The position numbers and the translations under genes are program-made. Of a stretch of DNA of 24,000 bases, positions 575 to 13,030 are shown piece by piece. Within the stretch, counting starts at the first letter, position 1, and every line of letters starts with the position of its first letter. Under the pieces are notes generated by a model. The model was not told the DNA's origin. It ran no database searches and saw only the letters and a program-made list of their open reading frames with translations. The stretch comes from Tepidanaerobacter sp. GT38 (lineage in GTDB: Bacteria > Bacillota > Thermosediminibacteria > Thermosediminibacterales > Tepidanaerobacteraceae), in contig NZ_JAFFJA010000050.1 in the NCBI RefSeq assembly GCF_021991635.1, positions 52,324 to 76,323 on the forward strand, given 5' to 3'.

Positions 575-2068
575 TTACTTTTCAAATTTCGTTGCATATT
601 CCATGATCATGTTTTGTGTGGCATGTTCAATATCCAACTCACCGGTAATTCTACCATTACACATTACAAGTATTCTATCGCTCATGCCTAAAATCTCCGG
701 CATTTCCGAAGAAACGAATATCACACCTATTCCTTGCTTTTTTAAATCGTTCATTAGATTATAAATCTCGACTTTCGCTGCAACGTCAATTCCTCTTGTA
801 GGCTCATCAAATATTACTACCCGCGAATTCCTAGCTAGCCATTTACTTACTACTACCTTTTGTTGATTACCTCCTGAAAGGCTATCAGTTACCACGTCAA
901 TATCTGGCAACTTAATTTTTAAATCTTTTACCATCTTATTTGCAATTGCTTTTTCTTCGTTTTCGTCTACAATCCCACATGATTTAGAAAGAAAATCTAA
1001 ATTTGGCAGAGCAATATTTTCTCTTACACTTAACTTTGTGCACAAACCGTCTCTTTTTCTATCTTCCGGCACCAAAACTATGCCAGCATTAATTGCATCT
1101 ATTGGCTTATTTATAGTTACAGATTTACCATCTAGGATAATTTCGCCGGATTCTTTCGGTTCCGCACCAAAAATTGCACGTGTTGTCTCTGTCCGACCAG
1201 CTCCCATAAGACCGGCTATCCCTAAAATTTCACCTTCATATAGCTCAAAATTAATATTTCTTACTAGCCTGCCCGCATTTAAATTTTTAACTTCGAATAT
1301 TTTTCCCCCTCTTTTTACGTTAACTCTAGGAAATTTCTGTTTTATTTCGCGACCCACCATGTTGGATATGATTTCCTGCAAAGTAGTTTCTGCGTAATTC
1401 ATTGTTGTTATATATCTACCATCTCGCATAATAGTGACGCGATCCACGATATGTTGTAATTCTTCCAAACGATGAGAAATATAGATTATTCCACAACCTT
1501 CTCCTTTTAATTTTCTTATAATCTTAAATAAATCATCAATCTCTTTTTCAGATAATGCAGAAGTAGGTTCATCCATTATCAGTATTCGCGAATTTGTAGA
1601 AAGAGCCTTGGCAATCTCTACTAACTGCTGTTTTGAAACAGGCAAATTGCCAACAATTTCATCCGGTGAAATATCAATATTAAGCTTATCAAGAATACAT
1701 TTGGCCTCTTTACTCATCTCCTTACTTGATAAAATTCCCATCTTAGTTATTTCTCGACCCAAAAATATGTTTTCGGCTACCGAAAGATGCGGACAAAGAT
1801 TTAATTCCTGGTGAATTATAGCTACACCCAATTGTTGTGCTTTTTTCGGCGTCAATTCTGTAACCGTATCCCCAAAAATTTTAATCTCACCGCTGTCCGC
1901 AGTATAAACACCACTTAGCACCTTCATTAATGTGGATTTACCTGCGCCATTTTCCCCTAGCAGTGCATGAACTTCTCCCGATTTTAGATTGAAAGATACA
2001 TCATCTAATGCTTTAACTCCCGGAAAAGTTTTATTAATGTGTTCCATTTCAACAATGTATTCTTGCAT
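575..2068 (-). CDS. Sugar ABC transporter ATP-binding protein with two fused NBDs (RbsA/MglA/XylG-like, CUT2 family)
   Basis: Both halves carry canonical motifs: Walker A GENGAGKST and GLMGAGRT, Walker B ILIMDEPT and VVIFDEPT, signatures LPVSKQQ and LSGGNQQK. The track start GTG 2077 lies inside the SD (AGGTGG). ATG at 2068 (MQEYIVEMEHINKTFPG) follows the SD by 5 nt and is the probable start. Confidence 0.9.
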   Translation of the reverse strand: MQEYIVEMEHINKTFPGVKALDDVSFNLKSGEVHALLGENGAGKSTLMKVLSGVYTADSGEIKIFGDTVTELTPKKAQQLGVAIIHQELNLCPHLSVAENIFLGREITKMGILSSKEMSKEAKCILDKLNIDISPDEIVGNLPVSKQQLVEIAKALSTNSRILIMDEPTSALSEKEIDDLFKIIRKLKGEGCGIIYISHRLEELQHIVDRVTIMRDGRYITTMNYAETTLQEIISNMVGREIKQKFPRVNVKRGGKIFEVKNLNAGRLVRNINFELYEGEILGIAGLMGAGRTETTRAIFGAEPKESGEIILDGKSVTINKPIDAINAGIVLVPEDRKRDGLCTKLSVRENIALPNLDFLSKSCGIVDENEEKAIANKMVKDLKIKLPDIDVVTDSLSGGNQQKVVVSKWLARNSRVVIFDEPTRGIDVAAKVEIYNLMNDLKKQGIGVIFVSSEMPEILGMSDRILVMCNGRITGELDIEHATQNMIMEYATKFEK

Positions 2069-2176
2069 AAATACCACCTAGTTATAGGTTTTTGTTTGAT
2101 ATGATTTGTGCTATTGTTTATATAGTTTTTATTGCGTAATTATTTATAATTAACATACCAATATATAACTTCTGAT

Positions 2177-2215
2177 AAAAGGGGGGAATTTTTGGATTTA
2201 TGGGGGTTTTTTTAG
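2177..2215. promoter_or_regulatory. Two phased G-run/T-run blocks (AAAAGGGGGGAATTTTTGG and TTTATGGGGGTTTTTTTAG) in the intergenic region upstream of the ABC ATPase; candidate response-regulator binding sites
   Basis: The G-runs start at 2181 and 2202, a 21 bp offset, in otherwise G-poor AT-rich DNA. They lie about 105-135 nt upstream of the ATPase start and 35-70 nt downstream of the pseudo-ATPase stop. The function is inferred only. Confidence 0.25.
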
Positions 2216-2247
2216 AAATGTTCAGATGAGTATTTCAGAGGTGTTTA

Positions 2248-3696
2248 TCATAGATTGGCTCGTAAATAGGAAAACTTCTCACTAGAATATTGTTTTTGCA
2301 GCCTTCCTTGTTCTATGACCATTAAACGGTTTGCTACAACAAGGCAATCAGATATACTAACTGCTAAAATAATCACTGTTATATGCTTTTTTCTCAATTG
2401 ATCAATTAGCTGTACCAAATGATGCCTATGATACATATCTGCATCAGAAAAGGGTTGTATTAAAATAACAATGTCAGGCTTATAAAGATGAACCCTATAG
2501 TACACTAAATTATATAAAGATTTGGGCGTTAAATTTTTTATATCGCTTGCATAAATATCTTCACCGATTAATTTCTCATATTCTTGAATTACACTTTTTT
2601 GGATATTTTTCATTGGACACCAGAAAGATAGTTTCTTGTTTGCTAGAAAACATAAATTATCGATATAACTCATTTCTTTAAATAACATACTTTGAATTGG
2701 ATTTTCTTGAATGAAACATATATTGTTTTTTAAATGTTTTAGGGTTTTAGTGTAATTTACTCCTTTAAAAAAAATTTGACCAGATAATGGTTTTATTTCT
2801 CCATTAATTAATTCTATAAAATCAGTTAAAACAGTATTGTTCATATCTAAAAAAACTACACATTCACCTTTTTGTATAGTGAAACTCAAATTCTTTATAT
2901 TATCTGTTGAAATATTTTGGAATTTTAATATACCATTTTCACTTTCTCTAGAAACTAACGGAAAGTCAATATGGCTAAAATCAAGGCTAAAAGAAGCAAT
3001 CACCTCATCTCGAAATTCACTTTTATTTAATACCTTAATTACTTTCCCATTTTTCATTATTGAAATTCTATCACATATTTTAAAAGCTTCTTCATGATGA
3101 TTACAGATATATAAAAAGGATATTCCTTGTTTTGTATAATATCTAATGATTTTATGAATTTTTTTTAAATCTGCCGTGCTTATAAAATTGCTAATATCTC
3201 GAATAACGATTAATTTAACCTTTGCTACAATAGCCTTTAAAATTTCCACAACGCACTTTTCAAAAGGTGACAAATTGAAAACTAATTCATTGCCGTCTAT
3301 CGAAATATTTAAGTCTTTTGTAAGTAATTTCAATTTAGCATTTAGAAAATTAGAATTAATTAAGTATCCTTTAAAACCTTTACTGATTACAAAAATATTG
3401 TCCACCACAGTTAAGTTTTCTACTAAACGACTTTGTCTTTCAATTACAGCAACCGGATTGTAACTCATAGAACTGTGTTCATAATTGTTAACCATGTTTT
3501 CTTCTAAATAAACATGACCATAATGTATGGGAACGTTTTGACAGAAAAGTTTGATAAGTGCTTCTTTGCCATGGTCGTTTAAGCATAATAGTCCCATAAT
3601 TTCTCCTTTAAAAATGTGCATGCTAAAATTATCTAAAACGGTTACACCATCAATAATCTGAGTTACTCTCTCTAACCTAAAAATTTCTTGTTTCAT
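2248..3696 (-). CDS. Degenerate tandem-NBD ABC-ATPase-like protein (paralog of RbsA/MglA-type ATPases with all catalytic motifs lost)
   Basis: The 482 aa protein is colinear with the neighbouring 497 aa ATPase. Walker A-1 is CLNDHGKE (vs GENGAGKS) and Walker B-1 is VIRDIS (vs IMDEPT). Walker A-2 is DMNNTVLT (vs GLMGAGRT), Walker B-2 is VILIQPF (vs VIFDEPT), and signature-2 is LTPKSLYN (vs LSGGNQQK). A good SD (AAGGTG, 6 nt spacer) lies inside the 3' end of the kinase gene, and the two genes overlap by 20 nt. Confidence 0.8.
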   Translation of the reverse strand: MKQEIFRLERVTQIIDGVTVLDNFSMHIFKGEIMGLLCLNDHGKEALIKLFCQNVPIHYGHVYLEENMVNNYEHSSMSYNPVAVIERQSRLVENLTVVDNIFVISKGFKGYLINSNFLNAKLKLLTKDLNISIDGNELVFNLSPFEKCVVEILKAIVAKVKLIVIRDISNFISTADLKKIHKIIRYYTKQGISFLYICNHHEEAFKICDRISIMKNGKVIKVLNKSEFRDEVIASFSLDFSHIDFPLVSRESENGILKFQNISTDNIKNLSFTIQKGECVVFLDMNNTVLTDFIELINGEIKPLSGQIFFKGVNYTKTLKHLKNNICFIQENPIQSMLFKEMSYIDNLCFLANKKLSFWCPMKNIQKSVIQEYEKLIGEDIYASDIKNLTPKSLYNLVYYRVHLYKPDIVILIQPFSDADMYHRHHLVQLIDQLRKKHITVIILAVSISDCLVVANRLMVIEQGRLQKQYSSEKFSYLRANL

Positions 3697-4762
3697 CTAT
3701 AGCACCTTCTGTTCTAAATATTCTGGGCAGAGTAATTTCTACATCTGTTCCTACATTTTCAGTGCTAAAAATATTAATACCGTATTGTTCTCCAAACAAA
3801 AGTTTTATCCTATTATTGACATTTATCATAGCAATTCCTGCTTTTTTTTCATCATCTGACTTCACATATTCAAAAGACTGTACATTGAGCTTTTCATTAA
3901 GTTCCATTAGGCGCTCTTCTTTCATTCCTATCCCATCATCAGAAACAGTAATTATTAATCTCTTGGGAGTGGTTTCAACCTTTATACGTACATGTCCTTT
4001 CCCCATCTTCTTTTCTATACCGTGAAAGATGGCATTTTCAACAATAGGTTGGAGTGTCAGTTTAGGCAACTGGTATTTTAGTACTTCATCTTTATTTTCG
4101 CTGTCAATTTCAATACTTAAACTAAGGCGTTCGCCAAAACGATATTGTTGAATATAATAATAATCTTCAATATTAGATAATTCATCCTCTAAAGTAACCA
4201 GATTATTATAATTAGAAATCGCGTACCGAAAAAATTTACCTAAAGCTTCAGCCATTTCAGCAATACTGTCTAAACCTGCTAGAATAGCCTCTCCTCGAAT
4301 TCCTTCCAAACTATTATATAAAAAGTGAGGATTGATTTGGTTTTGTAGAGCAAGGTACTGTGCTTGCTTTTTTGTAGCTTTCATAACTTCTTGCGTATTA
4401 TAAATTGCTTTAACTTTATTGATAACATCTTCCATTTCGGGGCTAAAAGGATATTGCAATTCAAACATTCCTTGTACCGTATAGCCTTTTACAAAAAGCT
4501 GCATTATTTTAGAAGTTTCTTTATACGGTATAAATAACCACCTATAAAACAAATATAAAGTGCCCAAGTATGCAAAATAGGGTACTATCAATAATAAAAA
4601 ATAAATACTTTGTGAATTACAATAAATTACAGTTAAAAAAATAAGAAGATAGGCTGATAAGACAATCAAAGCTACAATTATATAAAAAGCCCTGTAAAAT
4701 AAATACTTATTTTTATTCATAGCTCGATTTTCCATTCTAAGCATAAAGTTTTCTATATTCAT
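3677..4762 (-). CDS. Sensor histidine kinase, LytS/YesM family (His_kinase + HATPase_c), minimal form with two TM helices and no extracytoplasmic domain
   Basis: The H-box is LQNQINPHFLYNSLEGI, the N-box is QPIVENAIFHGIE, G1 is VSDDGIGM and the G2 region is AGIAMINVNNRI. The N-terminus has two hydrophobic helices (YRAFYIIVALIVLSAYLLIFLTVIY and IYFLLLIVPYFAYLGTLYLFY) joined only by CNSQS. The start is ambiguous (ATGs at 4762, 4744, 4735, 4720; none has a strong SD). The gene overlaps the end of the RR gene. Confidence 0.85.
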   Translation of the reverse strand: MNIENFMLRMENRAMNKNKYLFYRAFYIIVALIVLSAYLLIFLTVIYCNSQSIYFLLLIVPYFAYLGTLYLFYRWLFIPYKETSKIMQLFVKGYTVQGMFELQYPFSPEMEDVINKVKAIYNTQEVMKATKKQAQYLALQNQINPHFLYNSLEGIRGEAILAGLDSIAEMAEALGKFFRYAISNYNNLVTLEDELSNIEDYYYIQQYRFGERLSLSIEIDSENKDEVLKYQLPKLTLQPIVENAIFHGIEKKMGKGHVRIKVETTPKRLIITVSDDGIGMKEERLMELNEKLNVQSFEYVKSDDEKKAGIAMINVNNRIKLLFGEQYGINIFSTENVGTDVEITLPRIFRTEGAIDETRNF

Positions 4763-6344
4763 GAGGTTTCAGTCCCGTAAGCCGCTTAAAAGTTTTTGTA
4801 AAATGCTTTAGGTCGTTATATCCAACGGTTTGGCAAATATCAATGGTGCTCAAATTTGTTTCTTTTAATAATTCTTTAGCCTTGTTTATTCTAATTTCCG
4901 AAAGATATTCCGTAAAATTTTTTCCGCTTTCTTTTTTAAATAAGGCACTAAAATACGACTCATTAAACCCAACAAATTCACTAACTTCTTTTAAAGTTAT
5001 ACGATGCATATAGTTTTGATGAATATATTCTTTTGCCATCAATATCGGTTTAATATCAGCTTGAATTTTTTCTTTTATAATAACATCTATAATTTTACTT
5101 ATAGATTCAGACAAACAAATAAACAATTCCCATACAGAACTACATAGATCAGCTCGTAAATAAAAAGTCGAATTAGAATCTTCAATTTTATCTACGTCAA
5201 ATTGAAAATTTCTAATCGATCTTAAAAACAAACTAAATATATCGATAACTAAATTAAAAACTTCCTGGCCAAAAACATTTGTTTTTCTTAAAACTTGATG
5301 CCTAAGAAAATCTATTTCTCTAACGACACCATCTTTGTCTAAAATTTCTAGTGAGGTTTCCAATTTTTTAATAGTGTCACCAAAAAGGACCTTTAAATCA
5401 GAATATACTTTCGGCTGAAAACCTTCAAGTATTTTCCCAGTTCCTTCTACCAAACGTTGTTTTATTGCCCATTCAGCTGTTTTAAGAGAATGTTTTATCT
5501 GGCATATGTCATTTACTGCCTCTCCACGACCTATCGTCACTTCTTTAGTACAAAATAAGTTTTTTTGTACAAGTATCTCATCTAGACTGCATTTTAGTTT
5601 TTTTCGTATGTTTTTTTTATTCTGCTCTCCATAGTTTAACATACAATATACTCTGCTATTTTTTAAGTAAATTTCCATGTCAAAACAGTCTGATATTAAC
5701 TTTTCCCTTAAGATGTGTGAAATTTTTTGTTTTAGAATCTGTATGTTCCCATAAGATTCATTATGTTCGTAATCTAGTTTAACTACTAGCACTTCAAAAA
5801 TGCCAGGGCAGAAATGAAAATAGTAGTTCTTATTTACTTCATCAATATTAAAATTAATTTGATTAACTACATCTTCTAACAAATCATTTAAAAAGCTAGA
5901 ACGTAATTTTTCTGCATTGTTTTGTAGACTAAGTCGCAGCTGTTCTTGTACAGTATTGTGTTCTGTTTTTTGTTTATGTTTTTTACGGATATTGTTTAGA
6001 GTAGTAATAAGTTCTTTTTTGTTAATGGGCTTTAACAAGTAATCGCTAACTCCATATTTTATAGCGCTTTGAGCATATTCAAAATTACCATAACCACTTA
6101 TTATGATAAAATCTATATTTTTGTTTATTTGCTTGCCTTGCTTAATCACTTCCAACCCATCATAACCAGGCATACGAATATCTGTAATCACTATATCAGG
6201 CTTTAATTTTCTTATTAACTCTAATGTTTCTAAACCATTATTTGCAATCCCAACTACTTCCATATCCATAGACTTCCAATCAATTAAACCAAAAATCAGT
6301 TGACACACTTTCACCTCATCATCTGCAATAATGACTTTAATCAT
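4737..6344 (-). CDS. Two-component response regulator, YesN/AraC family (N-terminal receiver + C-terminal AraC-type HTH)
   Basis: Receiver motifs are ADDE near the N-terminus, the phospho-acceptor context IVITDIRMPG, and YLLKP. The C-terminus has a double HTH typical of the AraC family (LKEVSEFVGFNESYFSALFKK...ICQTVGYNDLKHFTKTFKRLTGLKPHEYRK). SD GAGGGG lies 8 nt upstream of the ATG. Confidence 0.9.
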   Translation of the reverse strand: MIKVIIADDEVKVCQLIFGLIDWKSMDMEVVGIANNGLETLELIRKLKPDIVITDIRMPGYDGLEVIKQGKQINKNIDFIIISGYGNFEYAQSAIKYGVSDYLLKPINKKELITTLNNIRKKHKQKTEHNTVQEQLRLSLQNNAEKLRSSFLNDLLEDVVNQINFNIDEVNKNYYFHFCPGIFEVLVVKLDYEHNESYGNIQILKQKISHILREKLISDCFDMEIYLKNSRVYCMLNYGEQNKKNIRKKLKCSLDEILVQKNLFCTKEVTIGRGEAVNDICQIKHSLKTAEWAIKQRLVEGTGKILEGFQPKVYSDLKVLFGDTIKKLETSLEILDKDGVVREIDFLRHQVLRKTNVFGQEVFNLVIDIFSLFLRSIRNFQFDVDKIEDSNSTFYLRADLCSSVWELFICLSESISKIIDVIIKEKIQADIKPILMAKEYIHQNYMHRITLKEVSEFVGFNESYFSALFKKESGKNFTEYLSEIRINKAKELLKETNLSTIDICQTVGYNDLKHFTKTFKRLTGLKPHEYRKLYA

Positions 6345-6451
6345 AATATTTACCCCTCAATCAAAAAATTTATCCCTTCAACCCCCAAAACAGCATAGTA
6401 ACTGGCAGTGCCAGAAATGCAAGAAAATTGAAGCAATCGTTCCTAATCTAT

Positions 6452-6481
6452 ATAATAAAAATGAATAGTTTGATTTGTCAA
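6452..6481 (-). promoter_or_regulatory. Candidate sigma-A promoter of the RR-HK-pseudoATPase operon
   Basis: On the minus strand a perfect -35 TTGACA (6481-6476) is followed after 17-18 nt by TTATTA/TATTAT. It lies about 110 nt upstream of the RR start codon. Confidence 0.4.
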
Positions 6482-6525
6482 GTTCTTTAGATTTCGCAAA
6501 ACTATCGTTAATGTTTGAATGGATT

Positions 6526-6580
6526 CAAAAAAAACAAAAAACTCCCGCAGCTTAATAAATCCAAGTTAAACTACGAGAGC
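6526..6580 (-). terminator. Rho-independent terminator downstream of the TrmH-family methyltransferase gene
   Basis: On the minus strand CTCTCGTAG...CTGCGGGAG forms a 9 bp stem (two G-U pairs) around a 20-nt loop, followed by TTTTTGTTTTTTTT. Confidence 0.5.
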
Positions 6581-6693
6581 TTCTAAAAAATTATTGTTCG
6601 TTTACAGAAGTACAAAACTTTTTTGTAAGGCTAACTGTCATTAAATAATGTGGAGAATGTTGTAAATAAATCGCAGCATATATCAAGAAAGTT

Positions 6694-7500
6694 TTAACAT
6701 TTTTTTGTTCTGCTCCTTTGTCTTACAGCTTCAAATACTATGATGCCATGGGCTACTGCTACGTTTAACGACTCAGCCTGACCAGGCATATCAATTCTAA
6801 CTAATTTATCGGAAATCTCAGAGATTTCTTGCGATACGCCACTCGCTTCCGAACCCATCACTATGACGGTACTTGTTTTAAAGTTTACATTGTAATAATC
6901 TTGTTTTGCAGATAAATGTGTGGTTACAACTTGCCCACCTCTCTGTTTTATCTCAAGAAGTGTTTTGCTTAAATCATCAGTATGCACTATGGGAATGTGG
7001 AATATGGAACCCATAGCTGACCGAACAACTTTGGGGTTGTATATGTCTACACACCCTTTTCCTACAATAATGCCATCAGCACCAGCTGCATCGGCAGTTC
7101 TTATTATTGTCCCCAAATTGCCTGGGTCCTGTATTTTATCCAAAGCAATTATTAGAAAGTTGTCTTTAATTATATTATCCAGCTTCGCATCTTTAAAATT
7201 GATAACCGCTAAAATTCCTTGAGGTGTTACAGTATCAGCCAGTTCGGTAAAGGATTTATTTGAAGCCTTGTATAATCTGTCCTCAGAAATTTTCTTTTTA
7301 AGCCTTCCTAAAAAGACATCATTTGAGTCTAAAAAACCATCCGATAATACGACAAATCTTATGTCATAAGCAGAATCAATAACTTCTTCAATATTTCTTA
7401 CACCTTCAACAATAAAGCACCGATTTTTCACTCTTGCGGTTTTAGACTCTCTCAAGGTCTTAATTAATCTTTGTTGCCTTTTAGATAGTTCTTTTAACAT
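6694..7500 (-). CDS. TrmH/SpoU-family RNA 2'-O-methyltransferase (RlmB/YsgA-like)
   Basis: SpoU motifs are present: DPGNLGTIIRTADAAGADGII, VMGSEASGVS and IDMPGQAESLNVAVAHGIIVFE. The N-terminus has a SpoU substrate-binding-like region. SD AGGTG lies upstream. Confidence 0.85.
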   Translation of the reverse strand: MLKELSKRQQRLIKTLRESKTARVKNRCFIVEGVRNIEEVIDSAYDIRFVVLSDGFLDSNDVFLGRLKKKISEDRLYKASNKSFTELADTVTPQGILAVINFKDAKLDNIIKDNFLIIALDKIQDPGNLGTIIRTADAAGADGIIVGKGCVDIYNPKVVRSAMGSIFHIPIVHTDDLSKTLLEIKQRGGQVVTTHLSAKQDYYNVNFKTSTVIVMGSEASGVSQEISEISDKLVRIDMPGQAESLNVAVAHGIIVFEAVRQRSRTKKC

Positions 7501-7510
7501 TTATCTGCAC

Positions 7511-8167
7511 CTATTCAAAATACCTTTCCAATTTTTCTATATCCTCTTTATGGCCAACCACCACAAGTATATCATCTTTAAAAATCACATCATCTGCATG
7601 AGGCGAAATTATTACATCATTATTATTGCGCTTTATAGCCATAACGTTTAATCCGTATTTTTTTCTCATATCGAGCTGTCTAAGGCTTTTATCAAACCAT
7701 GCCGGTACAGCGGCGATTTCTACAATGGAATATTCCGGCGAAAGCTCTATGTAATCTAGAATATTAGAATAAATCAAATTGTGAGCAACTCGGACGCCCA
7801 TATCCCTTTCTGGAAATACCACTCTATCAGCACCGATTTTGTACAACACCTTTCCATGTAATTGACTTTGGGCTTTTGCTACTACATATTTTATACCCAT
7901 TTCCTTTAACATAATCGTAATCAGAATACTTGATTGAATATCATCTCCTATACTAACTATTGCAACATCAAAATTTTTAACACCTAATGCCTTTAAAATA
8001 TTTTCATCTGTCGCATCTGCTTGAACTGCATGGGTTATGCTGTCAGCCATGTTCTGTATAATATCTTCATCTCGGTCAATTCCCATAACATCATAACCGA
8101 GGTTGTACAACGTTTTAGCTAAACTTGAACCAAAACGGCCTAAACCAACAACCAAATATTGCCTCAT
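7511..8167 (-). CDS. ktrA: Potassium uptake system NAD-binding peripheral subunit (KtrA/TrkA, RCK domains)
   Basis: The 218 aa protein has an N-terminal Rossmann motif VVGLGRFGSSLAKTL and TrkA-N plus TrkA-C organisation. It lies directly downstream of the KtrB/TrkH membrane subunit. SD GGAGGA lies 7 nt upstream. Confidence 0.85.
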   Translation of the reverse strand: MRQYLVVGLGRFGSSLAKTLYNLGYDVMGIDRDEDIIQNMADSITHAVQADATDENILKALGVKNFDVAIVSIGDDIQSSILITIMLKEMGIKYVVAKAQSQLHGKVLYKIGADRVVFPERDMGVRVAHNLIYSNILDYIELSPEYSIVEIAAVPAWFDKSLRQLDMRKKYGLNVMAIKRNNNDVIISPHADDVIFKDDILVVVGHKEDIEKLERYFE

Positions 8168-8182
8168 GCATCAATCCTCCAT

Positions 8183-9550
8183 TTAACCTACTAGGATTCG
8201 CTCTTCAGGAAACTTTATTAATGATTTATTTGTTTGATTGCCTAAAGCCGTAGCAAGAGTGAGCGGTCCCAATCGGCCTGTGAACATAGTCAATATTATT
8301 ACGATTTTACCAAAATCCGTAAGCCCCGGCGTAATACCTAAACTCAAACCAACAGTTGAAAAAGCTGCCGTGGTCTCAAATACAATCGAAAAAAAGTCTG
8401 CCTCTTCCGTAATTGTCAATATAAATGAGCTGATAAACACCAGCAGTACAGATACAATCGCTATAACTATAGCTTTAAATACATTATCCATCGGTATGCG
8501 CCTTTTAAATATTTCAACATGTTCTTTTGATGCAATTACAGTATATATCATCAAAATGATAAGCGCAAAGGTTGAGGTTTTTATGCCGCCTCCCGTTGAT
8601 GCAGGTGACGATCCTATAAACATTAAAATTATAGATAAATATTTTGCCGGCGTTGTCAAATCTTCAAGGTTTAAAGTATTAAAGCCGGAAGTTCTCGTAG
8701 ATACTGAATGAAATGCTGCTGCCAGAACCTTTCCAGTAGGTGTAAGAGCCCCCAATGTTTTTGGATTGTTCTGTTCCAATACATAAAACATCATACAACC
8801 CAAAAACATCAAAATTAATGTCATCGTAATGACAACCTTTGAATGCAACGATAAACGCCTAAAATCTCGCGTGGTCAATATGTCATAAATCACAGTGAAT
8901 CCAAGACCACCACACTCGTTAAGTACGATTGTTACAATATTTATTATTGGGTCTTCAATAAATGGTGCAAGGCTCCTAAACCCACCTACAACATCAAAAC
9001 CTGAATTGTTAAACGCAGAAACTGCGTGAAACAGGCCATAATATAAACTTTGGCCAACATCATAATATTTGACAAATCGAAAAACAAGCAGCACTGCGCC
9101 AAACCCCTCGAAGACAAGGGTTATAAGCAAAATGCGCCTAGTTAGTCTCACTAGGCCTGATAGCGTAAATTGATTTAGAGCTTCCTGTATTACCAGCCTT
9201 TCTCGCAAAGTTATCTTTTTTCCTAATAAAAGGAATAACAAAGTAGCCATGGTCATTATACCAAGGCCGCCTATTTGAATTAAAACCAGTATAACAATCT
9301 GACCAAAAAGAGAAAAGTGTGTATAAGTATCAACAACAGTAAGGCCGGTAACACATACAGCCGATGTGGCTGTGAAGAGAGCATTTAGAAAGCCAATACT
9401 TTCTCCACTTTTCGAAGCCTCCGGCAGGCTTAAAAGGATTGCTCCCACCAGTATTAATAAGCAAACACCAAAAGCTAGTGTCCGAGTAGGCTTTATCTTT
9501 TTAAGTCCTGCATCTAATAGCTTAATCCCTATCGCCTCCGAAATATCCAA
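8183..9550 (-). CDS. ktrB: Potassium transporter membrane subunit (KtrB/TrkH family)
   Basis: The protein is polytopic, with repeated selectivity-filter-like motifs (TATSAVCVTGL, QIGGLGIM, SAFNNSGF, ECGGLGFTV, SPASTGGGIKT, FSTVGLSLG). The start is uncertain. The track start TTG 9595 overlaps rplT and lies upstream of a terminator-like hairpin. In-frame alternatives are TTG 9550 (no SD) and ATT 9526, which is preceded by GGAGG at 8 nt. Confidence 0.85.
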   Translation of the reverse strand: MDISEAIGIKLLDAGLKKIKPTRTLAFGVCLLILVGAILLSLPEASKSGESIGFLNALFTATSAVCVTGLTVVDTYTHFSLFGQIVILVLIQIGGLGIMTMATLLFLLLGKKITLRERLVIQEALNQFTLSGLVRLTRRILLITLVFEGFGAVLLVFRFVKYYDVGQSLYYGLFHAVSAFNNSGFDVVGGFRSLAPFIEDPIINIVTIVLNECGGLGFTVIYDILTTRDFRRLSLHSKVVITMTLILMFLGCMMFYVLEQNNPKTLGALTPTGKVLAAAFHSVSTRTSGFNTLNLEDLTTPAKYLSIILMFIGSSPASTGGGIKTSTFALIILMIYTVIASKEHVEIFKRRIPMDNVFKAIVIAIVSVLLVFISSFILTITEEADFFSIVFETTAAFSTVGLSLGITPGLTDFGKIVIILTMFTGRLGPLTLATALGNQTNKSLIKFPEERILVG

Positions 9551-9575
9551 AAAAAGCGACCTGAGCCGCTTTTTA
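9549..9575 (-). terminator. Candidate weak rho-independent terminator/attenuator at the end of rplT
   Basis: The minus strand reads AAAAGCGGC-TCAG-GTCGCTTTT followed by further T's (7 T in total). It starts inside the rplT stop codon region. Confidence 0.4.
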
Positions 9576-9929
9576 CTGGACGTTTGCCTTGGCAATATCT
9601 ACCAACTGAGAAAACCCGCTAGCATCATTTATTGCCATTTCAGACAACATTTTGCGATTAATTTGTATTCCGGCTTTTTTAAGGCCGCAGATAAACTTGC
9701 TGTAAGAAATTCCATTGGATCTGGCTGCGGCATTGATTCTGGCAATCCACAGCTTCCTAAAATCTCTCTTTTTAAGTTTTCTACCTCTGTAAGCATGAGA
9801 TAAAGCCTTTAAGACCGCCTGGTTAGCAGGTCTAAATAATTTGCTCATTGAGCCTCTATAACCTTTTGCAAGCTTAAGAATCTTTTTATGTCGCTTACGT
9901 GCAGTAACTCCTCTTTTAACTCGTGCCAT
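9573..9929 (-). CDS. rplT: 50S ribosomal protein L20
   Basis: The N-terminus [26 protein letters not shown] is diagnostic. Synteny infC-rpmI-rplT. SD AAAGGAGGA. Confidence 0.97.
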
Positions 9930-9948
9930 ATAATTATCCTCCTTTGAC

Positions 9949-10146
9949 TTACATATAAGGTATTACCTGTTTTATTCTCTTTAAATCGGCTTTACTAAGC
10001 ATAGCCGGTTTTCTTAAGTATCTTTTTCTCTTAGCAGTTTTCTTGGTTAATATATGGCTTTTGAAGGCCTTAGCCCTTTTAATCTTACCTGTTTTTGTAA
10101 CTCTAAATCTTTTAGCAGCTCCTCTGTGTGTTTTTACTTTTGGCAT
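9949..10146 (-). CDS. rpmI: 50S ribosomal protein L35
   Basis: [24 protein letters not shown] is diagnostic. 65 aa, with conserved synteny. Confidence 0.97.
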
Positions 10147-10153
10147 AAATATG

Positions 10154-10684
10154 TCACTCCTTAGTTTTAGTTTGTTTTGGTGAAAGAATCATGACCATAT
10201 TTCTACCTTCAATTACAGGTGGCTTTTCAACTACTCCCAGCTCTTTTGTCTGTTCTATCATCTTGTTTAAAACATCTTCACCCAATTTGGTGTGTGTCAT
10301 TTGCCTACCCCGAAATTTAATGCTCACCTTAACCTTGTTTCCATCTTGTAAAAACTTTATAGCACTTTTTAATCTGACTTGGAAATCGTGGTCATCAATG
10401 GTAGGGTTCATCCTGATTTCTTTTACATTGATTACTTTTTGATTTTTGCGTGCTTCTTTTTCACGTTTGCTCTGTTCATATTTATATTTCCCATAATCCA
10501 TAATTTTACATACGGGCGGCTTGGCATCAGATGCAACCTTTACAAGGTCCAGTTGAGCTTCCTGTGCGTGGCGCAGCGCATCTTTTAACGGCATGATACC
10601 CAATTGCTTTCCATCAGGGCCTATCACTCTAACTTCGCGAGCCTTAATTTCGTGGTTCACCTGTATATCCTTATCTTTGCTAAT
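10154..10684 (-). CDS. infC: Translation initiation factor IF-3, probable AUU start codon
   Basis: [38 protein letters not shown] and the C-terminal domain are typical of IF-3. The track start TTG 10699 overlaps the SD itself (GGAGG at 10697-10693). In-frame ATT at 10684-10682 follows that SD by 8 nt. Confidence 0.9.
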
Positions 10685-10699
10685 ACTGTTCACCTCCAA

Positions 10700-10845
10700 G
10701 ACATAATAAAACCAATTAATAAAAAAGGGACGAGAAGAATCACTCGTCCCGTCCTTACCGTTGACAGATTAATAACCTTATAAGCCTTAGCCATAAGGTG
10801 AGAAGTGAATCTTCTGCTTAGAATTGTTATTTAATTACACCAGTT
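10700..10845 (-). promoter_or_regulatory. infC-rpmI-rplT leader with intrinsic terminator (L20-leader-type attenuator candidate; also serves as the thrS terminator)
   Basis: On the minus strand the hairpin GGGACGAG-TGATTCTT-CTCGTCCC (10750-10727) is followed by TTTTTTATT, about 35 nt before the infC SD. Upstream helices (ACCTTAT...ATAAGGT and AGAAG...CTTCT) give a structured leader of about 150 nt. Assignment to the L20-leader family rests on position and analogy, not on a covariance-model match. Confidence 0.55.
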
Positions 10846-10875
10846 AATATATCACATATTAACCTTTACTGTCAA
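10846..10875 (-). promoter_or_regulatory. Sigma-A promoter of the infC operon; its -35 box overlaps the thrS stop codon
   Basis: On the minus strand TTGACA (10875-10870) is followed by 18 nt and then TGaTATATT, an extended -10 (10851-10846). The thrS stop TGA (10874-10872) lies inside the TTGACA. Confidence 0.55.
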
Positions 10876-12782
10876 TTAAATTTTGAAGTTAATGATTTTA
10901 CTTCATCAATAAAGGATTCAATAGATTTTTGCCCAATATCGCCTTTTTCCCTCACCCGCACAGAAACAGTATTTTCTTCTGCTTCTTTATCGCCCACAAT
11001 TAACATATATGGAACTTTTTGCATCTGTGCTTCTCGTATTTTGTAGCCTATCTTTTCGTTTCTTTCGTCAAGCTCTACTCTGATACCAGCTTCCTCCAAG
11101 CGGTGTTTTACTTTGCGGGCATAATCCATGTGTTTTTCACTAATAGGCAGTATTCTGGCCTGAACAGGAGCCAGCCAAACCGGAAAAGCACCGGCAAAAT
11201 GTTCTATCAATATCCCGATGAACCGTTCTATACTGCCGAAGATAACGCGGTGAATCATAACTGGGCGATGTTTTTCTCCATCAGGACCAATATACGTTAA
11301 GTCAAAGCGCTCTGGCATCTGGAAGTCCAACTGTATGGTGCCGCACTGCCAGGTCCTTCCTATACTATCCTTTAAGTGAAAATCTATTTTAGGACCGTAA
11401 AAAGCGCCATCGCCTTCATTTATTTTATATGGCATACCTTTTTTTTCTAGGGCTTTTTGCAAGGCATTTGTTGCCTGCTCCCATAGCTCGTCAGAGCCCA
11501 TGGAGTCTTCAGGTCTTGTGGAAAGCTCTACATGATATTCAAAGCCAAATATTTTGTAGACATAATCAATTAAATCTATTACACCTATTATCTCTTCCTC
11601 TATTTGAGAAGGCATCATAAATATGTGTGCATCATCCTGGGTAAAACAGCGTACTCTCATGAGCCCATGCAATACCCCTGACTTTTCGTGCCTATGGACA
11701 AGCCCAAGTTCCCCCAATCTTATGGGTAAATCCCTGTAACTGTGTGAAGCAGTTTTATACATGAGTATGCCGCCAGGGCAGTTCATGGGCTTTACTGCAT
11801 AATCCAATTCATCTATTTTAGTAAAGTACATATTCTCCTTGTAGTGGTCCCAGTGGCCTGATCTGCGCCAGAGCTGTTCATTTAATATGATGGGTGTTTT
11901 TATCTCCTGATAACCCCGTTTTTGATGCTCACGGCGCCAAAAATCAGTCAATATATTCCATATCACCATGCCCTTTGGATGGAAAAACGGAAAACCTGGC
12001 CCTTCCTCGTGAATGCTGAAAAGATCGAGTTCTTTGCCCAGTTTGCGATGATCGCGCTTTTTAGCTTCTTCAATTCTGACAAGGTATTCTTCCAGCATGG
12101 ATTTTTTGGGAAAAGATATGCCGTAAATCCTTTGAAGCATCTTATTGCGTTCATCGCCTCTCCAGTAAGCGCCAGCAAGGCTTGTCAGCTTAAAGGCTTT
12201 TATTTTGCCCGTAGAGGGAATATGAGGACCTGCACAAAGGTCTGTAAACTCTCCCTGTTTATAAAAACTTATGTTCGCCTCTTCTGGAAGTTCCTCAACT
12301 AATTCTACTTTATAAGGCTCATTTTGGTTTTTCAAATGATTTAAAGCTTCTTGCCTTGAAATATCTTCCCGATAAAAAGCATAGTCTTCTGCAACTATTT
12401 TCGCCATTTCCTGTTCTATTTTCTCAAGATCAGATGGAGAAAAGCTTTCCTCCCTGTCAAAATCATAATAGAAGCCTTCGTCAATAGCAGGGCCAATAGC
12501 GAGCTTTACTTCCGGAAATAGTCGCTTTACCGCCTGAGCCATTACATGAGATGTGCTGTGCCAAAATACTTTGCGGCCTTCTTCATCGTCAAAAGTCAGT
12601 ATTTCAACCTGGCAATCGTCTTGGACTTTGTAGCTTAAATCTTTTACGACTCCGTCCACTTTGGCAGCCAGGGCCTCTTTTCCCAGCTTCTTGCTTATAT
12701 CTTCGGCAATTTCAAACAATGAAATACCCTTCGGATATGTTTTTTTAATTCCATCTTTTAATGTTACCTGTACTTCGTTCAT
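10872..12782 (-). CDS. thrS: Threonine--tRNA ligase
   Basis: The 636 aa protein has a TGS domain at the N-terminus, the editing-domain motif WHSTSHVMAQA, class II core motifs (FRREHQKRGYQEIKTP, GLMRVRCFTQDDAHIF, QCGTIQLDF) and an anticodon-binding C-terminus. A Thr T-box leader lies upstream. Confidence 0.97.
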   Translation of the reverse strand: MNEVQVTLKDGIKKTYPKGISLFEIAEDISKKLGKEALAAKVDGVVKDLSYKVQDDCQVEILTFDDEEGRKVFWHSTSHVMAQAVKRLFPEVKLAIGPAIDEGFYYDFDREESFSPSDLEKIEQEMAKIVAEDYAFYREDISRQEALNHLKNQNEPYKVELVEELPEEANISFYKQGEFTDLCAGPHIPSTGKIKAFKLTSLAGAYWRGDERNKMLQRIYGISFPKKSMLEEYLVRIEEAKKRDHRKLGKELDLFSIHEEGPGFPFFHPKGMVIWNILTDFWRREHQKRGYQEIKTPIILNEQLWRRSGHWDHYKENMYFTKIDELDYAVKPMNCPGGILMYKTASHSYRDLPIRLGELGLVHRHEKSGVLHGLMRVRCFTQDDAHIFMMPSQIEEEIIGVIDLIDYVYKIFGFEYHVELSTRPEDSMGSDELWEQATNALQKALEKKGMPYKINEGDGAFYGPKIDFHLKDSIGRTWQCGTIQLDFQMPERFDLTYIGPDGEKHRPVMIHRVIFGSIERFIGILIEHFAGAFPVWLAPVQARILPISEKHMDYARKVKHRLEEAGIRVELDERNEKIGYKIREAQMQKVPYMLIVGDKEAEENTVSVRVREKGDIGQKSIESFIDEVKSLTSKFN

Positions 12783-13030
12783 AATACCCCTTCCTTTACC
12801 TTTATGTTACATTATGTTATTCAAAAAGCCTCTCATCCCTAAGGGACGAGAGGCTTTCCCGTGGTTCCACCCTAATTTGAACTCATTAGCTTTTAAGGCT
12901 TGCAGCCGTAAAACTCCGAGGTGGTCTTCGGCTTAGTTTTCCCAGGGCTTTTCCAGCTACCGGCCCCTCTCTGAGGGAAAAATCATAAGCTTACTCTTCT
13001 CATCATAGTTTTTTGTAACTATAGAATTTT
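12783..13030 (-). promoter_or_regulatory. T-box riboswitch leader (threonine specifier ACU) with terminator/antiterminator
   Basis: The minus strand has a GA/K-turn motif GATGAGAAGAGTA, an AG-box CAGAGAG, and a distal loop GGTAGCTGGAAA. The specifier loop GGGAAAACTAAGC carries ACT (plus 12935-12937) followed by A. The T-box sequence AAATTAGGGTGGAACCACGG lies at about 12860-12879. It is followed by a 12-bp terminator GCCTCTCGTCCC-TTAG-GGATGAGAGGC (12828-12854) plus TTTTT. Confidence 0.85.

Follow-up and report, generated by a model that had tools for sequence, protein, structure and literature searches.

A putatively inactive paralog of a sugar importer ATPase encoded with a sensor-less histidine kinase: a candidate transporter-coupled sensing system in Tepidanaerobacter sp. 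GT38 and other Bacillota

YesM/YesN-type two-component systems of Firmicutes control sugar ABC transporters, and in MalK-MalT, UhpC/UhpB and yeast Snf3/Rgt2 the transport machinery or a paralog of it has been reused to report substrate. Intramembrane-type histidine kinases (HK) are, to our knowledge, unable to sense alone, and we know of few devices that feed them a signal, namely Bce-type transporters, LiaF, PhoU-Pst and binding-protein co-sensors. Here we analyze a 24,000-nt stretch of Tepidanaerobacter sp. GT38 (contig NZ_JAFFJA010000050.1, positions 52,324 to 76,323; “the window”), in which genes for a response regulator (RR), a short HK and a degenerate relative of a sugar importer ATPase (“pseudoATPase”) lie directly upstream of a genuine CUT2 sugar ABC transporter. 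The closest described systems include the substrate-binding protein (SBP)-dependent three-component systems XylFII-LytS-YesN of Clostridium beijerinckii and CuaD-CuaR/S of Ruminiclostridium cellulolyticum (PMC8050422, PMC10384115, PMC5663094). In Bce-type modules (BceRS-BceAB, GraSR-VraFG) an ABC transporter controls an intramembrane-sensing kinase (PMC3023708, PMC4314665), and in PstSCAB-PhoU-PhoR phosphate signalling a cytoplasmic adaptor reports the state of an ABC importer to the kinase (PMC9239213, PMC13577022). The locus presented here falls into the same broad class of accessory-protein or transporter-coupled two-component sensing, with what appears to be a dead copy of an importer motor as its third part.

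The locus comprises the following features:

4737-6344, minus strand: RR gene, 535 aa, Response_reg plus HTH_18/HTH_AraC, YesN-like
3677-4762, minus strand: HK gene, 361 aa as the longest open reading frame, YesM/LytS family of the intramembrane type, His_kinase PF06580 plus HATPase_c
2248-3696, minus strand: pseudoATPase gene, 482 aa, a paralog of the CUT2 (RbsA/XylG-like) ATPases with tandem nucleotide-binding domains (NBD)
575-2077, minus strand: genuine CUT2 ABC ATPase gene with the canonical CUT2 motif set; the probable start, ATG 2068, gives 497 aa
1-522, minus strand: N-terminal part of the CUT2 permease gene (BPD_transp_2), cut by the window edge
3677-3696, minus strand: 20-nt overlap of HK stop and pseudoATPase start, with the internal Shine-Dalgarno sequence GAAGGTG
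2177-2216, minus strand: putative RR operator of two direct repeats, matching a double C-box pattern
2152-2160, minus strand: putative extended -10 of the transporter promoter (TGGTATGTT), 20 nt downstream of the proximal C-box
6452-6481, minus strand: putative sigma-70-type promoter TTGACA-18-TATTAT upstream of the RR gene, recognized by consensus match only

Judged by its motifs, the pseudoATPase is a CUT2 ATPase paralog that cannot be catalytic, in agreement with an initial annotation of the window that had described the third component as a hydrolysis-incapable relative of the transporter's own ATPase. Its only Pfam match is ABC_tran, and residues 1-474 align with the XylG, RbsA, AraG and MglA models of NCBIfam, i.e. 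the homology runs from end to end. Its scores of 134-163 bits lie 4-5 fold below the cut-offs of these models (~690-830), compared with ~605 bits for the neighbouring ATPase (575-2077) against the RbsA and XylG models, and the search of Pfam and NCBIfam returned no family specific to the pseudoATPase. The Walker A motif of NBD1 reads CLNDHGKEA instead of the GENGAGKST of the real ATPase, and Walker B reads IRDISN instead of MDEPT; in NBD2, Walker A has become DMNNTVLTD (DMNNT in the family) and Walker B is IQPFSD as opposed to FDEPT. A canonical Walker A (G..G.GK[ST]) is present in 66/66 adjacent real ATPases and in 0/75 pseudoATPases; likewise, the D-E Walker B, found twice per protein in all 66 real ATPases, occurs in none of the 75. 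Throughout the family the Q-loop glutamine is lost, LSGGNQQ has been replaced by L..SLY and DEPTRGID by QPFSGADM. Among the hallmarks of CUT2 ATPases the protein thus retains the single tandem-NBD chain and lacks the canonical Walker A and B, the Q-loop and the NBD2 LSGGQ.

Could the pseudoATPase still bind ATP or ADP at its degenerate sites, without hydrolysis, and gate the kinase by the energy state of the cell? The P-loop Gly43 of NBD1 is kept in 100% of copies and the lysine in 53%, and the H-loop histidine is also kept. The glycine-rich loop, however, is lost (C-I/L-N-x-x-G), many members have Gln, Met, Leu or Val in place of the Walker A lysine, neither an A-loop aromatic nor a signature motif is left, and the Walker A of NBD2 is wholly gone. 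A nucleotide or energy sensor of this kind is therefore very improbable.

The loss of all catalytic motifs would also be compatible with a functionless, decaying duplicate of the transporter ATPase, a reading to which we assign practically no chance. Open reading frames are intact in >120 loci, and the degenerate motifs are themselves conserved, with a mean column identity of 64% (25 members from Bacilli, Clostridia and Thermoanaerobacterales) and with family-specific motifs in place of the lost ones (PIHYG, LVNNYxHS, CNHHEEAF, SLYNLVYYR and QPFSGADMYLR). The ratio of non-synonymous to synonymous substitution rates (dN/dS) is 0.05-0.28 between close pairs, similar to that of the kinase and the regulator. 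The pseudoATPase is under purifying selection, and these selection and conservation data effectively refute non-function.

An AlphaFold2 model of the pseudoATPase shows a tandem-NBD fold (pLDDT 85.9, pTM 0.81), whose best PDB matches are fused-NBD proteins, namely OppD and DppD of Mycobacterium tuberculosis (TM-score 0.76-0.77) and the MCR A2 component. A protein search revealed a large family at 47-72% identity, hosted by Thermoanaerobacterales, Oscillospiraceae, Lachnospiraceae, Clostridiaceae, Peptostreptococcales, Paenibacillus, Bacillus and Robertmurraya. Among 1.84 billion cluster representatives, an exhaustive HMMER search yielded 493 matches at E <= 1e-30, and Walker A was present in 0 of the 150 best of these (50% clustering; 46% down to 25% identity). 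When the search was seeded with the most distant relative, scores dropped from 378 to 159 bits before genuine ATPases turned up. Besides structural glycines, the best conserved positions of the superfamily are N100/F102 and N347/L348; N100 (DNiF) and N347 (dNLcf) are situated in the post-Q-loop motifs that begin both helical subdomains. The helical subdomain is the part of an ABC NBD that grips the coupling helix of the permease. On the permease side, the coupling-loop motif TRTGRhIYAiGSNiEAAxLSGVN is highly conserved. A tblastn search against the PLSDB plasmids yielded genuine ATPases only (21-24% identity), and the best match (Acetoanaerobium) has a canonical Walker A. Members of the family currently carry the label “sugar/ribose ABC transporter ATP-binding protein”, an annotation that misleads metabolic reconstruction.

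The kinase is without any input device besides the neighbouring pseudoATPase. The domain search detected PF06580 (2.9e-24) and HATPase_c (2.6e-11) and no HAMP, PAS, Cache or 5TM-LytS domain. The absence of an extracytoplasmic domain, already proposed in the initial annotation, is borne out by two adjacent transmembrane helices with a loop of ~5 residues, i.e. the intramembrane-sensing layout of two such helices and a very short extracellular loop; a cytoplasmic sensor domain is missing as well, and a 45-aa helical linker takes the place of HAMP. The 120 closest kinases are all 260-378 aa long, and those of the scanned loci mostly 335-370 aa. The juxtamembrane motif Y.W.Y.PY.E..K.L.LF..GYT is conserved, and in a model of the kinase alone this segment continues the second transmembrane helix before a loop and a short helix lead into DHp. 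H146 and the QNQINPHFLYN box are invariant, with the H, N and G boxes intact. The RR combines Response_reg (1.2e-24) and HTH_18 (1.1e-21), an AraC-type double helix-turn-helix, with a ~300-aa middle region, and its receiver residues DD(8,9), D55, S83 and K105 are conserved in >=90% of 60 orthologs. Since both the kinase boxes and the catalytic residues of the receiver are intact, the phosphorelay looks functional.

The association of the genes was surveyed in 79 loci from genomes and 59 from metagenomes, which were annotated with custom profiles and merged into 125 non-redundant loci; synteny counts were restricted to loci with long enough flank. Across the 125 loci the gene order RR-HK-pseudoATPase followed by ATPase-permease-SBP is nearly invariant. 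The co-occurrence of degenerate RbsA-like paralogs with short YesM-type kinases, for which the initial annotation had called for a gene-neighbourhood survey, was found in 105/112 loci, where the short kinase lies directly upstream of the pseudoATPase, and most of the misses are truncated genes. An AraC-type regulator is located upstream in 101/105 loci, a real CUT2 ATPase downstream in 94/102 (~92%), and permease plus SBP downstream in 81/86. Look-ups seeded with kinase homologs (Defluviitalea, Caloramator) gave the same cassette. The three-gene arrangement is far beyond chance and by no means unique to this genome, the six-gene cassette being present in >100 species of Bacillota and in one Spirochaetales metagenome-assembled genome (MAG).

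The three minus-strand open reading frames of the regulatory module and the 20-nt overlap of HK and pseudoATPase genes were confirmed as originally annotated, including the Shine-Dalgarno sequence GAAGGTG within the HK gene, which lies 8 nt ahead of the pseudoATPase ATG. Overlap and internal Shine-Dalgarno sequence together suggest translational coupling. In nearly all relatives the same junction has an overlap of 4, 11, 20 or 38 nt or a gap of at most ~33 nt. The proposed RR-HK overlap of 8-26 nt stands for the two upstream start codons (26 nt with ATG 4762, 8 nt with ATG 4744); alignments of HK homologs, however, begin near Met10 or Met15 (4735 or 4720), one of which is probably the true start, so that a gap of 1-16 nt would replace the overlap. 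The HK gene is also annotated differently in GenBank and ENA (347 vs 361 aa), its start codon being ambiguous. One contig carries an in-frame kinase-pseudoATPase fusion of 837 aa (P0005; L083:2176-4689) with the junction ...AAAAAGGGAAATAAAAATAAAATG within an A-rich run; the fusion may be genuine or the product of an indel or assembly error, and no further fusions were present in the 59 metagenome and 79 genome loci.

Distant relatives, with pseudoATPase identity to that of the window, are arranged as follows:

L151, 35% identity: RR-HK-pseudoATPase-permease in one operon, with SBP and a Walker-A-positive ATPase divergent
L150 (short contig), 34% identity: HK-pseudoATPase with a 4-nt overlap
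L152, 32% identity: permease-SBP-esterases-pseudoATPase-RR-HK
L153 (Spirochaetales MAG GCA_016936115.1), 27% identity: complete six-gene cassette, outside Bacillota
L145-L148 (4 loci), 25-28% identity: trio divergent from an MFS gene

These arrangements mark the kinase-pseudoATPase pair as the invariant core of the system. The trio persists down to 25% pseudoATPase identity, the module is spread over >=150 clusters at 50% identity, and a CUT2 transporter adjoins in 3/4 informative distant clades; it is the usual, not the universal, companion of the trio. The cassette in the Spirochaetales MAG points to either an ancient origin or horizontal transfer. Within the regulatory operon of L151, the genes for the pseudoATPase and a CUT2 permease overlap by 23 nt. 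Among the nearer relatives, the transporter is in a different orientation in L019 and L058. One locus (L134:3329-11234) holds two RR-HK-pseudoATPase trios in tandem, the second cut by the contig end, and here HipA-like and resolvase-HTH genes are found upstream. In Caloramator quimbayensis (L085:505-5033) a Bce-like module (OmpR-type RR, kinase, ABC ATPase and FtsX permease) lies directly upstream of the cassette, which places two different transporter-linked kinase systems side by side.

A non-coding spacer always separates the pseudoATPase gene from the real ATPase gene. In the window it spans 2078-2247, confirming the 170 nt given in the initial annotation between the module and the canonical CUT2 ATPase and permease genes (179 nt with the ATPase start at ATG 2068). 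It contains two repeats of approximately tCCAAAgaAtaCCCCCtta, each an A-rich stretch followed by a C-box, with C-box starts 21 bp apart; the proximal repeat overlaps the -35 position of the transporter promoter, and relatives carry TGcTATACT at the same spacing as the extended -10 of the window. Nowhere else in the 24 kb of the window is the double C-box pattern found, and its 2 overlapping matches here, one base apart, compare with 0.03 expected. The pattern C-box-N17-22-TGnTAnAnT is present in 47/68 orthologous spacers vs 0.06 in shuffles, and most of the other spacers carry recognizable variants. Such a layout would fit an AraC-type activator overlapping the -35. A search for autoregulation detected a C-box operator in 0/74 regions upstream of the RR gene. 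Given the conserved operator and extended -10 in the intergenic region, the transporter genes would form a separate operon that is probably activated by the RR. The earlier observation that no terminator separates module and transporter holds insofar as a simple hairpin scan of the window spacer revealed no terminator-like structure, and a hairpin plus T-run follows the pseudoATPase gene in ~27/68 relatives, a few of them doubtful. The lack of a terminator does not imply a single transcript, as a conserved promoter of the activator type lies in the spacer. The putative promoter ahead of the RR gene (6452-6481) matches 11/12 consensus positions, the best match in 1900-7000, and probably drives the RR-HK-pseudoATPase operon constitutively.

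The same type of promoter is found before a different gene in L132, where the trio is followed by a 1869-aa GH92 alpha-mannosidase with CBM6 instead of a transporter (L132:6231-6390 and 6390-11999); here the C-box repeats and a TGCTATACT -10 stand ahead of the GH92 gene. A PfkB kinase gene is located upstream in this locus. With regard to the transported sugar, the binding protein has a distant RbsB/AlsB-like match only, far below cut-offs, and no substrate was assigned from it. Recurrent neighbours of the cassette (flanks of L004-L082) are ROK family proteins (34 loci), SIS-domain proteins (27), D-lyxose/mannose isomerase (10), mannose-6-P-isomerase-like cupins (8), PfkB kinases (7) and DUF4432 proteins (6), which hints at a mannose-, fructose- or lyxose-like sugar; none of these genes was found near the cassette in the window itself.

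We propose that the pseudoATPase is the obligate input subunit of the kinase, docked on the permease in the motor's place and relaying the state of SBP and permease, and we give this reading about an even chance of being correct. Docking on the permease is favoured by the motor ancestry of the protein, the ~92% CUT2 adjacency, the conservation of N100 and N347, and the gene coupling in L151, where the 23-nt overlap favours the permease as partner. Docking on the real ATPase, which had been considered as well, is unlikely, and a pairing of the two was rejected, since the real ATPase is already a complete tandem-NBD protein.

In the proposed course of events, the RR-HK-pseudoATPase operon would be driven by its own promoter, and the sensor-less kinase would take its input from a pseudoATPase made in step with it via translational coupling. 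Descended from the transporter motor, and with the tandem-NBD fold and both helical subdomains kept, the pseudoATPase would be unable to bind or hydrolyse ATP in the normal way; sitting in the motor position beneath the permease dimer, it would yield a receptor version of the transporter that cannot transport. When the sugar-loaded binding protein docks, the permease would change its conformation and the two pseudo-NBDs would open or close, a movement passed on to the kinase alongside, which would be held in the membrane by its two transmembrane helices and the juxtamembrane segment. The phosphorylated AraC-type RR would then bind the two direct repeats at the -35 and switch on the ATPase-permease-SBP operon. 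We infer the protein-protein contacts, the direction of signalling and the ligand. The further idea of a motor-swapped receptor, in which permease and SBP would be shared between the live ATPase for transport and the kinase-tethered dead paralog for signalling, is put forward tentatively, its chances falling a little short of even. If true, it would represent a new transmembrane receptor design that reverses the coupling from transmembrane domain (TMD) to NBD in an importer, with ATP-driven NBD closure replaced by a ligand-driven closure that is read by the kinase.

Several observations weigh against permease docking. Mirror-tree analysis and partial correlations were performed on the six cassette proteins, with identities taken across 60 complete cassettes. 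Mean identities are 74% for the ATPase, 76% for the permease and 67% for the SBP vs 47% for the RR, 56% for the HK and 49% for the pseudoATPase. The distance matrix of the pseudoATPase correlates best with those of HK (r=0.88) and RR (r=0.85), and its partial correlations are 0.46 with HK and 0.42 with RR, compared with -0.09 for the permease and 0.05 for the ATPase, although the test is weak, the permease being nearly invariant. The transmembrane helix sequences of the kinase are poorly conserved, which disfavours a specific contact with the permease within the membrane. A sequence search for solved structures returned none for relatives of the CUT2 ATPase, the permease or the pseudoATPase, i.e. 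no template for the contacts. An orphan pseudoATPase (L025:8001-9455, also L099) lies between ileS and three M42 peptidase genes, with no kinase, regulator or transporter within 8 kb in L025; L055, L128 and L132 have the trio without an adjoining CUT2 transporter; and in L145-L148 no CUT2 genes are found within 8 kb of the trio. Finally, the strongest family-specific conservation falls on the former ATP site 1 (HHEE, YNLVYYR, QPFSGADMY), which could equally be a new ligand pocket.

In the main rival scenario, possible but on balance rather unlikely, the system is a self-contained cytoplasmic sensor: the pseudoATPase would sit on the kinase dimer and sense an intracellular ligand, the imported sugar or a metabolite, at the remodelled nucleotide site, with the permease uninvolved. 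Here the two juxtamembrane helices of the kinase would act as coupling helices, with one tandem pseudo-NBD protein per two HK. Such a sensor would agree with trios kept without CUT2 genes (the MFS-linked clade, L055, L128 and L132), with co-evolution with HK and RR and not with the permease, with the clustering of family-specific aromatic- and His-rich motifs at the former ATP site 1, and with the one HK-pseudoATPase fusion. It would also agree with the juxtamembrane pattern PY..F..G.T..L..P, of which P65, Y66, F76, G79, T81, L88 and P91 are invariant even in the MFS-linked, 25%-identity clade. It leaves unexplained, however, why the kinase's partner is of CUT2 motor ancestry, why CUT2 genes adjoin in near and distant clades alike, and why pseudoATPase and permease are translationally coupled in L151. 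Moreover, membrane anchoring of the kinase would be needless, and the site-1 motifs are not superfamily-wide (HHEE in 32/150, QPF in 65/150 superfamily representatives).

In a third scenario the pseudoATPase would act as a decoy or brake, limiting transport by occupying permease that the real ATPase would otherwise use (trans-inhibition or dosage control); it would be merely co-expressed with a kinase that senses some other cue, e.g. membrane or lipid. The motor ancestry, the preserved fold and helical subdomains and the position of the gene outside the induced transporter operon would all suit such a role. Nevertheless, we consider it improbable, for it explains neither the near-obligate coupling of HK and pseudoATPase genes nor the fusion nor the transporter-free trios, and it leaves the kinase without an input device.

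On the full contig the single permease is 345 aa long, and a gene for a Peripla_BP_4 binding protein comes next (matching contig DUSW01000016.1, Thermoanaerobacterales MAG, biogas fermenter). G+C of the regulatory genes is 0.275-0.30 vs 0.33-0.42 in the flanking housekeeping and transporter genes (window 2001-6000). GC skew is ~0 between 2001 and 3000, a bin that takes in most of the 3' portion of the pseudoATPase gene, and about -0.13 to -0.27 in most bins around it, all with minus-strand genes. A T-box leader (99 bits) is located at 12839-13015 (minus strand) upstream of the threonyl-tRNA synthetase gene, within a thrS-infC-rpmI-rplT-ktrB-ktrA-trmH-like housekeeping block that adjoins the cassette.

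Our results reveal a large and strongly conserved family whose kinase-feeding device would be a catalytically dead copy of an ABC importer motor; we found no description of this architecture in the full-text literature, most subscription journals being outside its coverage. If the pseudoATPase sits under the permease, this would demonstrate that the conformational coupling of ABC importers also works backwards, as a receptor, and the protein would offer a natural nucleotide-independent NBD pair for studies of TMD-NBD coupling. The induction of a monosaccharide transporter in many Firmicutes, possibly one for mannose-like sugars, would be accounted for as well. The system is widespread and testable in cultured strains of Paenibacillus, Bacillus and Anaerocolumna.

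Compared with known systems, the locus shares with YesM/LytS-YesN the kinase core (PF06580 plus HATPase_c), the REC-AraC regulator with phospho-acceptors intact and the probable target, an adjoining sugar ABC transporter operon. It differs in lacking an extracytoplasmic Cache-like domain and HAMP and in encoding a third, cytoplasmic ABC-derived protein with the kinase. As in XylFII-LytS-YesN and CuaD, a third part derived from an ABC transporter would feed a YesM/LytS-type kinase, and an RR, AraC-type or other, would switch on a sugar ABC transporter. The co-sensor of those systems is an extracellular binding-protein paralog acting on a periplasmic kinase domain, whereas here it would be a cytoplasmic paralog of the motor subunit. 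In addition, the kinase has no outside domain, the regulatory operon consists of RR, HK and pseudoATPase only, and the only SBP belongs to the transporter operon.

With Bce-type modules the system has in common a kinase of two transmembrane helices and a minimal loop that lacks a sensor of its own and, here too, would depend on the ABC system of the neighbouring genes. Bce modules, however, combine an active FtsX-type exporter and hydrolysis-dependent flux sensing with a HisKA-type kinase and an OmpR-type RR, in contrast to the CUT2 importer (BPD_transp_2 permease), the dedicated and apparently dead ATPase, the PF06580 kinase and the AraC-type RR found here. Pst-PhoU-PhoR likewise couples a kinase without external sensor to a dedicated cytoplasmic adaptor, but PhoU is an unrelated helical protein that binds active PstB and the PAS domain of PhoR, whereas here the adaptor would be an NBD paralog and the kinase has no PAS. 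In MalK-MalT, UhpC and Snf3 the sensor is an active ATPase or a whole transporter paralog; here, seemingly only the motor has been duplicated and inactivated, and the permease and SBP may be shared between transport and sensing. The third component of this system is a different kind of protein from those of the SBP-type, Bce and PhoU systems.

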